Positions 1 to 9,476 of a DNA stretch of 15,478 nucleotides are shown here, piece after piece; the stretch's first letter is position 1; each line of letters opens with the position of its first letter. The stretch lies in NCBI RefSeq assembly GCF_003334815.1, contig NZ_QOWO01000055.1, one strand, 5' to 3'. The DNA is from Escherichia coli (GTDB lineage Bacteria > Pseudomonadota > Gammaproteobacteria > Enterobacterales > Enterobacteriaceae). Position numbers and translations under genes: made by a program. The notes under the pieces were generated by a model. That model worked only from the letters and a program-made list of their open reading frames with translations, did not search any database and was not told the origin of the DNA.

Positions 1-281
1 CGTTCACACGGACCGTGGAGGCCAGTACTGTTCAGCAGATTATCAGGCGCAACTGAAGCGGCATAATCTGCGTGGAAAGCTTCTTTCATTCGCTGAAAGT
101 GGAATGTATCCATGGAGAACACTTTATCAGCCGGGAAATAATGCGGGCAACGGTGTTTAATTATATCGAATGTGATTACAATCGGTGGCGGCGGCACAGT
201 TGGTGTGGCGGCCTCAGTCCGGAACAATTTGAAAACCAGAACCTCGCTTAGGCCTGTGTCCATATTACGTGGGTAGGATCA
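1..281 (+). mobile_element. IS3 insertion sequence, 3' portion only (window begins inside the element); right terminal inverted repeat ends at 281
   Basis: Translation of 2-251 matches, from memory, the C-terminal region of IS3 OrfB/InsF ([24 protein letters not shown] ... [56 protein letters not shown]). The 3' terminus GGCCTGTGTCCATATTACGTGGGTAGGATCA (251-281) resembles the IS3 right inverted repeat (TG...GGACAC motif on the complementary strand). Confidence 0.8.
2..251 (+). pseudogene. insF: IS3 transposase OrfB (InsF) C-terminal fragment, disrupted by an internal deletion and frameshift near position 77
   Basis: The reading frame changes between ...NLRG (ends 76) and FFHSLK... (starts about 81). 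The conserved IS3-family segment between them (SMS-K/R-G-N/C-C-Y/W-DNA-x-x-E) is absent. Stop codon TAG at 249-251. Confidence 0.75.
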
Positions 282-1739
282 CCGCACTCTTGACATAAGA
301 GTGCGGTCCGTGGAAAACGGAGTTGAAAAAATGGTGTCTGAAAGAAGGTACCATCATTGCGATGACAAACACTTTGGCGTGGATAATGTAATTAATTGCT
401 GAAATTGACCGTATATGCGGTAAGACTCATATCAGTATCAGGTCCGGTTAATTGCTGATACTGACATAAACTTTTTACAAAAGGATGAATGCAGAAGGTT
501 ACTCTAATGGCCAGAGTGATGACAATGATGGTCAGACGTTGACCTGCAGAAACTGCATTTTAATTGGTCTATAAAGTCTGCAAGAGGAATCAGGGCCAGA
601 TCAGTGAGTCTTATCGCGGCCCGAAGCTATGACTGAAAGAAGGCTGGATACAGAATTGCAACAATTTGGCAATGTCAGAACACAGAAGCTTTGCAAGCAG
701 GTGAAAGGTTATGTCTAGCAAAAGGAGTATATCAGAATACATCTACTGATGTACAAAACACAACAATAGCTTCATGATATATAAATACGTGATGACGAGT
801 GGTACTCCGCATGGTTATTTAACTTCTCAGCACCACTAATGATCCTGAGCAACTTCGTATTTGGGCCATTGCCATGGAGTAGAAAGCTGTGTCTGAGAAT
901 GCAGAATTTGAGAAAAGAATTCGCTTTCTTGGAGAGCTTCTGAAAATGGCACGCTAACAACGTTTTGTTAAAAAATGTGAATCACTTGCCGAGGCTGCAT
1001 TTTCTATTCGAGGAGAATGTTGACGTAGATATTACAGAAATCTCAGCGCATCAGGATAAACTGCTACCTTAGGTCAACCACCAAAAGAAAATACAATACG
1101 TCCAGTTTGTATGCCTTTAATAACACATCTTTTAAATGTTGAAGAATTATCCCGCCTGCTGAAGAACGTTGCTCTGAGTGTGATAAACCTTTTTATTCTT
1201 GATGATGTCAGCGAGAAGATGGAATATATCCCCGACTGGGTCGTGGTTACCCGGTTAAACATCTGGTGGCGCTAATAAATCTGGCAAGTCACATTCTGTT
1301 GAATGCTGTGACAGTGCCTTACCGAGAGAGCGAAATTGTGGTGTTCTAGTGCATAGTCGCCACCATTCCGGATAATTCTATTGCGTTGTTTTACAAGTTC
1401 TTTTACAGCGCAGATCTGTCGTTGACGTTGAATCAATAGCCTGGATTTCAGAACACAATGCCCGTTTGCTGGTTGGTCCGGCAGTAGCATTAATTCATTA
1501 TCTGAATGAAATGTGTCAATCCACAGAAACCGCTGTCAATGACGCATTTTGTCGGACGTTAACACGAGGAAGTCTGGCTATTCCACAATGCCATCTTCTT
1601 TCGTAATGGATTGAGAATGCTGGATTTTTAATTATATTACGCGCAGTATTGATCGTGTAAATGTTTTGCGGTCAGCAATGGTGGGGGATCCATTGTTCTG
1701 TTCAATGAATACCATCATACAATTGAATCAGGAGTCGGT

Positions 1740-4177: not shown

Positions 4178-5113
4178 ATGATGCGTCGTGTAAATATTCT
4201 TTGCTCATTTGCTCTGCTTTTTGCCAGCCATACTAGCCTGGCGGTAACTTATCCATTACCTCCAGAGGGTAGCCGTTTGGTGGGGCAGTCGCTTACTGTA
4301 ACTGTTCCTGATCACAATACCCAGCCGCTGGAGACTTTTGCCGCACAATACGGGCAAGGGTTAAGTAACATGCTGGAAGCGAATCCGGGCGCTGATGTTT
4401 TCTTGCCGAAGTCTGGCTCGCAACTCACCATTCCGCAGCAACTGATTTTGCCCGCCACTGTTCGTAAAGGGATTGTGGTTAACGTCGCTGAGATGCGTCT
4501 TTATTACTACCCGCCAGACAGTAATACTGTGGAAGTCTTTCCTATTGGTATCGGCCAGGCTGGGCGAGAAACCCCGCGTAACTGGGTGACTACCGTTGAA
4601 CGTAAACAAGAAGCTCCAACCTGGACGCCAACGCCGAACACTCGGCGCGAATATGCGAAACGAGGGGAGAGTTTGCCCGCATTTGTTCCTGCGGGGCCCG
4701 ATAATCCCATGGGGCTGTACGCGATTTATATTGGCAGGTTGTATGCCATCCACGGTACCAATGCCAATTTTGGTATTGGACTTCGGGTAAGTCAGGGCTG
4801 TATTCGTCTGCGCAATGACGATATCAAATATCTGTTTGATAATGTTCCTGTTGGAACGCGTGTGCAAATTATCGACCAGCCAGTAAAATACACCACTGAA
4901 CCAGATGGCTCGAACTGGCTGGAAGTTCATGAGCCGCTGTCGCGCAATCGTGCAGAATATGAGTCTGACCGAAAAGTGCCATTGCCGGTAACCCCATCTT
5001 TGCGGGCGTTTATCAACGGGCAAGAAGTTGATGTGAATCGCGCAAAAGCTGCGTTGCAACGTCGATCGGGAATGCCTGTGCAAATTAGTTCTGGTTCAAG
5101 ACAGATGTTTTAA
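4178..5113 (+). CDS. ldtA: L,D-transpeptidase LdtA (ErfK), YkuD-domain periplasmic protein
   Basis: ORF with N-terminal signal peptide ([22 protein letters not shown]) and L,D-transpeptidase catalytic region (HGT...SQGCIRL). Tandem ATGs at 4178 and 4181; K-12 ErfK is 310 aa, which fits a start at 4181. RBS AGGAAAGGGA at 4167-4176. Confidence 0.9.
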
Positions 5114-5135
5114 GAGCGTTGGTAATTAGAAAGCA

Positions 5136-5164
5136 AAAAGCCTGCTAGAAAGCAGGCTTTTTTG
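5136..5164. terminator. Bidirectional rho-independent terminator between ldtA (+) and tRNA-Asn (-)
   Basis: Stem AGCCTGCT (5139-5146), loop AGAA, stem AGCAGGCT (5151-5158), flanked by an A-run upstream and a T-run downstream, so it works in both directions. Confidence 0.7.
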
Positions 5165-5168
5165 AATT

Positions 5169-5244
5169 TGGCTCCTCTGACTGGACTCGAACCAGTGACA
5201 TACGGATTAACAGTCCGCCGTTCTACCGACTGAACTACAGAGGA
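5169..5244 (-). tRNA. asnV: tRNA-Asn (anticodon GUU)
   Basis: Reverse complement is TCCTCTGTAGTTCAGTCGGTAGAACGGCGGACTGTTAATCCGTATGTCACTGGTTCGAGTCCAGTCAGAGGAGCCA, 76 nt with encoded CCA and anticodon loop CTGTTAA. Gene name assigned by synteny (between nac and erfK in K-12). Confidence 0.96.
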
Positions 5245-5262
5245 ATCGTGTGAATGGGGCGC

Positions 5263-5291
5263 ATATTAATGGCAGTGCATGGTGATGTCAA
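5263..5291 (-). promoter_or_regulatory. Sigma70 promoter of tRNA-Asn (asnV) with GC-rich discriminator
   Basis: On the minus strand: -35 TTGACA (5286-5291), 17-bp spacer, -10 TAATAT (5263-5268), then GC-rich discriminator GCGCCCC before the tRNA 5' end; typical stable-RNA promoter layout. Confidence 0.6.
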
Positions 5292-5364
5292 AGGGTGAAA
5301 TGCATTTTTTTGTTTGTTTGCTGCCAATTTCAACAAAGTGATGAGATTTCAATCTTATTGGTAA

Positions 5365-5381
5365 TGAACCATCGTGGTGCA
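5365..5381 (+). promoter_or_regulatory. Candidate NtrC (NRI) enhancer half-site pair upstream of nac
   Basis: TGAACCATCGTGGTGCA resembles the NtrC consensus TGCACCA-N3-TGGTGCA; it lies about 150 bp upstream of the predicted sigma54 start site. Confidence 0.35.
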
Positions 5382-5498
5382 TACCCTCCTTTTATAGGGC
5401 AGGGGAACGCGACTGCTGGTGAAAAGAGCCAATGACGAATCTATCATAATCTCTTATTTGACAGTTGGTTAGCTTGTACATCAACGCCAAAATAAAAC

Positions 5499-5514
5499 TG
5501 GCAAGCATCTTGCA
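5499..5514 (+). promoter_or_regulatory. Sigma54 (RpoN) promoter of nac
   Basis: TGGCAAGCATCTTGCA: near-consensus -24 GG / -12 GC elements (TGGCA-N7-TTGCA) about 55 bp upstream of the nac ATG; nac is a known sigma54/NtrC-dependent gene. Confidence 0.75.
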
Positions 5515-5569
5515 GTCTGGTTGTAAGTAATGGCGGCACTTGGGCCGATTCTCAAAAACCGGAGGCAAC

Positions 5570-6487
5570 ATGAACTTCAGACGCCTGAAATACTTCGTAA
5601 AAATTGTAGATATTGGTAGCCTGACTCAGGCTGCTGAAGTATTGCATATCGCACAACCAGCGCTCAGCCAGCAGGTTGCCACACTGGAAGGTGAGTTAAA
5701 TCAACAACTTTTGATTCGCACAAAACGGGGCGTTACGCCAACAGACGCCGGAAAAATTCTCTATACCCATGCGCGGGCCATTTTACGTCAGTGTGAGCAG
5801 GCCCAACTGGCGGTGCATAACGTTGGTCAGGCATTATCGGGGCAAGTCTCGATTGGCTTTGCGCCAGGAACCGCTGCGTCATCTATCACCATGCCCTTAT
5901 TACAAGCGGTTCGCGCTGAATTCCCGGAGATCGTTATCTATCTTCATGAAAATAGCGGTGCAGTGCTTAACGAAAAACTGATAAATCACCAACTCGATAT
6001 GGCGGTGATTTATGAGCATTCCCCTGTGGCTGGGGTATCCAGTCAGGCTTTGCTGAAAGAAGATCTTTTCCTGGTAGGAACTCAAGATTGCCCGGGGCAA
6101 AGCGTTGATGTTAATGCTATTGCGCAAATGAACCTCTTTCTCCCCAGTGATTACAGTGCTGTTAGACTTCGTGTTGATGAGGCTTTTTCCCTACGGCGGC
6201 TCACGGCAAAAGTCATTGGTGAAATTGAGTCTATTGCCACGCTTACCGCAGCGATTGCCAGCGGCATGGGCGTTGCAGTATTACCCGAATCGGCCGCGCG
6301 TTCGTTATGTGGCGCAGTAAATGGGTGGATGTCACGCATTACCACGCCTTCCATGAGTCTCTCTTTGTCATTAAATTTACCCGCCAGAGCGAACTTATCG
6401 CCACAGGCACAGGCAGTGAAAGAGTTGTTAATGTCAGTGATTAGTTCTCCAGTGATGGAAAAAAGGCAGTGGCAATTGGTGAGCTAA
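5570..6487 (+). CDS. nac: LysR-family nitrogen assimilation control protein Nac
   Basis: Start at ATG 5570 (MNFRRLKYFVKIVDIGSLTQAAEVLHIAQPALSQQ...), 305 aa, matching E. coli Nac as remembered. The ORF-track start at 5540 is a TTG extension. RBS GGAGG at 5561-5565. Confidence 0.93.
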   Translation: MNFRRLKYFVKIVDIGSLTQAAEVLHIAQPALSQQVATLEGELNQQLLIRTKRGVTPTDAGKILYTHARAILRQCEQAQLAVHNVGQALSGQVSIGFAPGTAASSITMPLLQAVRAEFPEIVIYLHENSGAVLNEKLINHQLDMAVIYEHSPVAGVSSQALLKEDLFLVGTQDCPGQSVDVNAIAQMNLFLPSDYSAVRLRVDEAFSLRRLTAKVIGEIESIATLTAAIASGMGVAVLPESAARSLCGAVNGWMSRITTPSMSLSLSLNLPARANLSPQAQAVKELLMSVISSPVMEKRQWQLVS

Positions 6488-7576: not shown

Positions 7577-7652
7577 TGGCTCCTCTGACTGGACTCGAAC
7601 CAGTGACATACGGATTAACAGTCCGCCGTTCTACCGACTGAACTACAGAGGA
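7577..7652 (-). tRNA. asnU: tRNA-Asn (anticodon GUU)
   Basis: Identical 76-nt sequence to the other two tRNA-Asn copies (reverse complement of 7577-7652). Name by synteny (between cbl and yeeO). Confidence 0.96.
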
Positions 7653-9400: not shown

Positions 9401-9476
9401 TCCTCTGTAGTTCAGTCGGTAGAACGGCGGACTGTTAATCCGTATGTCACTGGTTCGAGTCCAGTCAGAGGAGCCA
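9401..9476 (+). tRNA. asnW: tRNA-Asn (anticodon GUU)
   Basis: TCCTCTGTAGTTCAGTCGGTAGAACGGCGGACTGTTAATCCGTATGTCACTGGTTCGAGTCCAGTCAGAGGAGCCA. Name by synteny (between yeeO and yeeN). Confidence 0.96.

Follow-up and report, generated by a model that had tools for sequence, protein, structure and literature searches.

The stretch of DNA analyzed here (15.5 kb; hereafter the window) belongs to the E. coli chromosome and covers the cobUST-ldtA-asnV-nac-cbl region, as identified from its open reading frames, an ARAGORN tRNA scan, and RefSeq annotation. The genes cobU, cobS, cobT, and ldtA lie on the plus strand, followed by asnV (tRNA-Asn, minus strand), nac and cbl (both plus), a second tRNA-Asn gene (minus), yeeO (plus), a third tRNA-Asn gene (plus), and yeeN, amn, and shiA (minus). 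The RefSeq annotation is that of a genome identical over a 521-bp query (window positions 5100-5620) and that of a K-12-like genome. Of 5426 complete E. coli genomes, 5425 contain the query, 5410 of them at coverage of at least 80%.

The three tRNA-Asn (GTT) genes fall within 4.3 kb (5169-5244, 7577-7652, and 9401-9476) and are interleaved with nac-cbl and yeeO, an asnV/asnU/asnW layout that is standard for E. coli. Genes for asparagine tRNA are insertion sites for islands in some strains; within the window no island lies next to any of the three, because gene order there is that of the K-12-like genome. The best-matching genome has IS elements and pseudogenes upstream of cobU, a region that takes in window positions 1-1739; gene order was compared from there onward.

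The gene downstream of the region studied here (Table 1) is annotated as nac by RefSeq in genomes identical to the window over the 521-bp query. Its product is a full-length Nac protein, scoring 600.7 bits against NCBIfam model NF008410 (the NAC equivalog; cutoff 309) across residues 1-305. The annotated start is the ATG at 5570, and the list of open reading frames gives an upstream in-frame TTG at 5540.

Table 1. Features of the nac control region in the window, with mean column identity in an alignment of 32 species
Feature	Position	Strand	Mean column identity	Details
Predicted high-affinity NtrC (NRI) dyad TGAACCATCGTGGTGCA	5365-5381			centre 5373, -152 from the predicted start
NtrC dyad, left half			0.82	
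NtrC dyad, central 3 bp			0.54	
NtrC dyad, right half			0.92	
Candidate low-affinity NtrC site	5385-5401			centre 5393 (about -132), two helical turns (20 bp) closer to the promoter than the dyad; CCTCCTTTTATAGGGCA in the window
Right half (ATGGGGCA) of this second block across species			0.97	
Candidate Nac-type operator ATCATAATCTCTTAT (ATC-N9-TAT)	5443-5457		0.76	centre 5450, about -75
Sigma-54 (RpoN) promoter CTGGCAAGCATCTTGCA, full 17-mer	5498-5514	+	0.92	GG 5500-5501 (-25/-24), GC 5512-5513 (-13/-12)
TGGCA (-24) and TTGCA (-12)			1.00	invariant in 32 species
Predicted transcription start (A)	5525	+		12 nt downstream of the C in the -12 GC
nac leader	5526-5569	+		Shine-Dalgarno GGAGG at 5561-5565
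nac coding sequence	5570-6487	+		305 aa, LysR-type regulator NAC; ORF and RefSeq
Inter-block spacers			0.49-0.54	

A first-pass annotation had placed a near-consensus sigma-54 promoter at 5499-5514, and our analysis supports this in full. By direct reading, TGGCAAGCATCTTGCA occupies these positions on the plus strand, with its GG and GC doublets 10 bp apart in the pattern TGGCAC-N5-TTGCW; it has one mismatch to TGGCACG-N4-TTGCW and is the sole match with no more than one on either strand of the window (0.18 expected by chance per window; at least one in 35 of 200 shuffles). For the weight-matrix scoring suggested with that annotation, a matrix was built in leave-one-out fashion from 41 other intergenic ChIP-seq sites tabulated by Bonocora et al. 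(PMC4591121). The 17-mer at 5498-5514 scores 17.75 bits, the best match in the window (the runner-up has 14.4) and a significant one, since only one of 200 shuffled windows reaches this value; pooled with the 41 known sites (range 8.8-21.3, median 16.0) it ranks 12th of 42.

All 17 nucleotides are identical to CTGGCAAGCATCTTGCA, site OS19 of MG1655, which Bonocora et al. (2015; PMC4591121) place 45 nt upstream of nac and mark as a confirmed promoter; its sigma-54 ChIP-seq signal was 24-fold above threshold, and it was their positive control for induction under limiting nitrogen. In vivo occupancy of the nac promoter by sigma-54 would carry over to this genome from that identity. The element faces nac, and the published distances (45 nt between start and gene, 64 nt between motif centre and ATG; PMC4591121) match the window, where the motif centre is at 5506 and the ATG at 5570, so the transcription start is placed, provisionally, at 5525. 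In K-12, nac transcription has been reported to depend on rpoN and an enhancer-binding ATPase (PMC4591121; PMC4066584; PMC3870243). A hairpin resembling a terminator, on the minus strand at 5513-5501, reflects the GCAAG/CTTGC symmetry within the sigma-54 element and was set aside.

The upstream element, TGAACCATCGTGGTGCA, was likewise confirmed by direct reading of the plus strand. It has one mismatch to TGCACCA-N3-TGGTGCA, and nothing else in the window matches this consensus even at three mismatches or fewer; dyads with at most one mismatch are expected 0.01 times per window and appeared in 2 of 200 shuffles. Its centre is 152 bp from position 5525, within the range of roughly 100-160 bp upstream taken for an enhancer, and thus the earlier description of an NtrC dyad "about 150 bp upstream" is correct. 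Motifs derived from ChIP-exo for NtrC (GCaCcaaaAtgGtGC), RpoN (tGGcacgattttTGCa), and Nac (ATAagnaaaanttAT) match the three conserved blocks of nac, the dyad agreeing with the NtrC motif save for the C of its left GC (PMC9853098).

Binding of NtrC at the nac dyad was reportedly documented in classic footprinting papers, by Feng and coworkers in 1995 and by Muse and Bender in 1998, and occupancy of exactly 5365-5381 is assumed here on the strength of that literature; a full-text literature search returned no mention of the sequence TGAACCATCGTGGTGCA itself. Genome-wide data place NtrC at the locus: a ChIP-seq peak with 59.6-fold enrichment was assigned to nac-cbl (Brown et al. 2014; PMC4066584), and gSELEX gave RpoN and NtrC peaks in the nac/asnV spacer, where the signal climbs to 86% when the two proteins are present together (Shimada et al. 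2021; PMC8743547). The 80-bp interval of Brown et al. (MG1655 2059941-2060021) corresponds to about 5506-5586 in the window and so contains the promoter and the ATG, not the dyad some 130 bp upstream; the bases contacted by NtrC are therefore below the resolution of the in vivo data. Peak-calling resolution or cross-linking through a DNA loop may account for the offset.

A scan for the Nac protein with one genome per species gave 80 loci in about 30 enterobacterial genera, and the 330 bp upstream of nac were aligned from 32 of these; all comparative counts refer to this alignment. Dyad and promoter form a phylogenetic footprint at near-fixed spacing across the 32 species, the dyad with the consensus tGCACcnttnTgGTGCA standing out from a flanking spacer of 0.50 column identity. 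Measured from the predicted start, the dyad is centred between -150 and -153 in 29 of the 32 species (Raoultella ornithinolytica is included because its alignment has the arrangement of its sister species; the script had chosen a tied sigma-54 match elsewhere). The exceptions are Pseudocitrobacter (L053) at -140 and two Kluyvera (L040 and L064) at -130; they are shorter by about 11 and 22 bp, that is, by whole helical turns, so the face of the helix is preserved. This is the pattern predicted for a looping enhancer with face-of-helix constraints, and the alignment illustrates how the enhancer-promoter distance has been held at about 152 bp, or cut by whole turns, across some 30 genera.

It is very unlikely that the sigma-54 promoter is real and the dyad is not a working enhancer; NtrC would then work from solution or some other place, and the dyad would be coincidental or serve a different regulator, for instance one of the divergent asnV promoter. 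The left half of the dyad is indeed imperfect (TGAACC), the published NtrC interval is centred on the promoter, and the opposite strand carries the asnV promoter within about 75-100 bp of the dyad. Against this, a one-mismatch dyad is rarely produced by chance, as the expectation above indicates; the TGGTGCA of the right half does not vary among six Escherichia sequences and is highly conserved across the 32 species; and the cross-species consensus of the dyad is the NtrC consensus itself. The distance of the dyad is conserved to the sigma-54 element, not to asnV, and in Lelliottia both dyad and spacing persist despite replacement of the tRNA flank.

Reading the dyad as the nac enhancer, we find a second conserved block on its promoter-proximal side. 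Its 32-species consensus is nTACCcCtnATGGGGCA, and its right half, ATGGGGCA, is one mismatch from the TGGTGCA half-site. The half-site reads TGGGGCA in most genera and TAGGGCA in the window, where the 17-mer (CCTCCTTTTATAGGGCA, compared with TACCCCTnATGGGGCA across genera) has mismatches at 8 of the 14 positions of the NtrC dyad consensus. Within the genus, ATGGGGCA is kept in E. whittamii and in divergent Escherichia sequences, and ATAGGGCA is found in the window and the K-12-like strain. The TACCCCTnATGGGGCA block (orthologous positions in loci L005-L081; degenerate in the window) has a CCCC/GGGG symmetry of its own, and its right half is more conserved than the dyad itself. By analogy, the block at 5385-5401 is probably a weak second NtrC site; its assignment to NtrC follows what is reportedly the description of the K. 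aerogenes enhancer.

The mismatch in the left half-site falls at the information-rich C of the GCAC core, where A takes the place of C; with this TGAACC half and a degenerate neighbor, the E. coli enhancer appears sub-optimal, and the Escherichia nac enhancer is, to judge from its bases, weaker than the family consensus. Expression of nac needs a high level of phosphorylated NtrC (NtrC-P), making it a late, high-threshold NtrC target; the mechanistic detail of this requirement is said to be in work by Feng and coworkers (1995) and Atkinson and coworkers (2002). A sub-consensus enhancer would fit such a requirement. The order of activation has been given as glnAp2, followed by glnK and nac (PMC3870243).

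Between enhancer and promoter lies a third block, ATC-N9-TAT, with the 32-species consensus ATcAgaatcnCTTAT; its column identity exceeds that of the flanking spacers, it is invariant in six Escherichia sequences, and it is compatible with the ChIP-exo Nac motif ATAagnaaaanttAT (PMC9853098). The block is one mismatch from the core ATA-N9-TAT, which alone is too short for significance because three exact copies were seen in the window and 3.5 were expected. One of these copies, at 5381-5395 and abutting the dyad, was rejected as a Nac site, being neither significant nor conserved as such. The centre of the ATC-N9-TAT block, at about -75, falls between -152 and -24, as anti-activation of the K. 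aerogenes kind requires; the nac promoter of K. aerogenes has been cited for a repressor bound between an enhancer and a sigma-54 promoter (PMC4740811). On this evidence Nac autorepression probably takes place at 5443-5457. The Kluyvera deletion is next to a diverged version of the ATC-N9-TAT block, in which TTAT, near-invariant elsewhere, is lost.

No IHF-like site with one mismatch or fewer was found between 5382 and 5498, so an IHF-assisted loop is not proposed. The nac promoter of K. aerogenes is reported to be independent of IHF, which would fit the lack of such a site here. The same spacer contains, at 5419-5447 on the plus strand, a weak sigma-70-like match (GTGAAA-17-TATCAT), which offers the one argument for supposing that both the sigma-54 and the NtrC motif are chance occurrences and that nac is transcribed from a sigma-70 promoter. 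This match agrees at only 9 of 12 positions and overlaps the conserved Nac-type block, with no conserved -35/-10 pair; the joint motif statistics, the deep conservation, and the ChIP-seq data speak strongly against chance, and we give this possibility next to no weight, less than to any other considered here.

The first-pass annotation had also held that the region matches the known nitrogen-limitation control of nac and had suggested that this regulation is intact. Among Escherichia sequences there is little or no variation in the promoter 17-mer, the ATC-N9-TAT block, and the TGGTGCA half-site; the TGAACC half is shared by the window, the K-12-like strain, Escherichia sp. MOD1, and E. whittamii, and TGTTCC occurs in two divergent lineages. 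The K-12-like genome has the same dyad and the same promoter 17-mer as the window, so nac regulation looks intact in this genome. Alignment to the reference promoters, a check proposed with that annotation, puts the K-12 and Klebsiella elements at the same places, and nac is a known target in K-12; both statements are supported.

Three features of the window could be taken to mean that the elements are present and regulation is impaired: the base at 5515, directly 3' of the -12 TTGCA, is G here and A in K-12 and 29 of the 32 species; the second site is degenerate; and, relative to K-12, a deletion of 1 bp lies upstream of the dyad. The degenerate site and TGAACC are, however, common to K-12-like sequence, and in K-12 nac is a documented NtrC/sigma-54 target. 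Position 5515 is outside the published 17-nt motif, and G also occurs there in two other genera and in roughly one complete E. coli genome in five, going by the 1102 of 5377 E. coli records that match the surrounding 59-nt core at no less than 99%. The 1-bp indel, being upstream of the dyad, leaves the phasing of enhancer and promoter unchanged. Impaired regulation is accordingly less credible still than a dyad without enhancer function.

Among known systems, the E. coli K-12 nac promoter (Muse and Bender 1998; OS19) is the same locus, with the same 17-nt sigma-54 element, dyad TGAACCATCGTGGTGCA, ATC-N9-TAT block, and 45-nt leader. Identity is 97.5% over 521 bp; the differences are G for A at 5515, the 1-bp indel, and scattered spacer changes, and the core motifs are unchanged.

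The nac promoter of Klebsiella has the same architecture, with the sigma-54 element TGGCAAGCAAATTGCA, an NtrC dyad (TGCACCGTTGTAGTGCG in K. pneumoniae ATCC 13883) at -152, a second block 20 bp downstream of the dyad, and ATC-N9-TAT between enhancer and promoter. Two 1995 papers by Feng, Goss, Bender, and Ninfa reportedly deal with this promoter in K. aerogenes and K. pneumoniae. Klebsiella has a consensus GCAC left half-site and an intact second block, TACCCCTAATGGGGCA, whereas in E. coli the half-site is TGAACC and the second block is degenerate; the spacers of the two are otherwise unalignable (about 50% column identity).

The E. coli glnAp2 and glnK promoters belong to the same class, in which a -24/-12 promoter is activated by NtrC-P from upstream dyads via looping. 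At glnAp2 two strong NtrC sites lie next to each other, and low NtrC-P is enough for the promoter to fire; unlike it, nac has one good dyad with a weak neighbor and a putative operator for its own product. The glnAp2, glnK, and nac promoters were all bound in one sigma-54 ChIP-seq data set (PMC4591121).

Taken with its neighbors, the region from 5365 to 5569 is almost certainly the native, already characterized NtrC/sigma-54 control region of E. coli nac, and we found no evidence that contradicts this reading. It is a textbook element and not a novel one, and in this genome it is present, intact, and ordinary. The scheme that would apply draws on general knowledge of bacterial enhancer-binding proteins, namely that sigma-54 polymerase forms a closed complex, that NtrC-P oligomerizes and contacts it through a loop, and that ATP hydrolysis drives opening. 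Sigma-54 RNA polymerase would sit on the -24/-12 element at 5498-5514 in a closed complex that cannot start transcription alone. When nitrogen is limiting, NtrB would phosphorylate NtrC, and NtrC-P would oligomerize on the enhancer centred at 5373 (-152), probably aided by the weak neighbor at about -132. It would reach the polymerase by looping out some 130 bp and open the promoter by hydrolyzing ATP, and transcription would then begin near 5525. Nac most likely binds ATC-N9-TAT at about -75 and would damp its own synthesis.

The genome thus appears to carry the standard NtrC-to-Nac cascade, by which the nitrogen-starvation response is extended from sigma-54 to sigma-70 promoters. The significance of the finding beyond annotation is small.

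The nac leader ends in a conserved block, A(C/G)GGAGGCAA-ATG, with a column identity of 0.88 in the 32-species alignment. The leader contains a possible short hairpin at 5532-5549 on the plus strand (CGGC at 5534-5537 with GCCG at 5544-5547), for which other genera have CCAG/CTGG or GCCG/CGGC. A hand-specified 5-bp stem pairs in register in 70.7% of cells (29-41% when the partners are slid), with five of five pairs changed on both sides, which suggests moderate support for the stem. RNAalifold returned no consensus structure for the nac leader, and its single-sequence fold is no better than that of shuffled sequences (z = +1.15). That the leader hairpin is a post-transcriptional control element, or that the TACCCCTnATGGGGCA block beside the dyad is the target of an undescribed nac regulator whose site has decayed specifically in E. 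coli, is unlikely, slightly less so than the case of a dyad without enhancer function.

On the minus strand, asnV has a near-consensus sigma-70 promoter at 5263-5291 (-35 TTGACA, a 17-bp spacer, and -10 TAATAT), with a GC-rich discriminator (GCGCCCC) after the -10 and a column identity of 0.96-0.99 over 32 species; it is a typical stable-RNA promoter. An imperfect palindrome, TGCTGCCAATTTCAACA, lies at 5319-5335 (32-species consensus TGCTGACAATTTCAGCA, identity 0.90), centred about 71 bp upstream of the predicted asnV start (near 5256) and, on the nac side, about 198 bp before that gene's predicted start. In position and shape it is similar to the FIS upstream activating sites of stable-RNA promoters, and by this likeness it is a probable, still putative, FIS-like upstream site of asnV. 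At the other end of the tRNA gene, the intergenic region between the convergent ldtA and asnV (5135-5162) contains a 12-bp stem-loop with A-runs and T-runs on both sides (AAAAAGCCTGCTTTCTAGCAGGCTTTTT) that looks like a shared bidirectional terminator.
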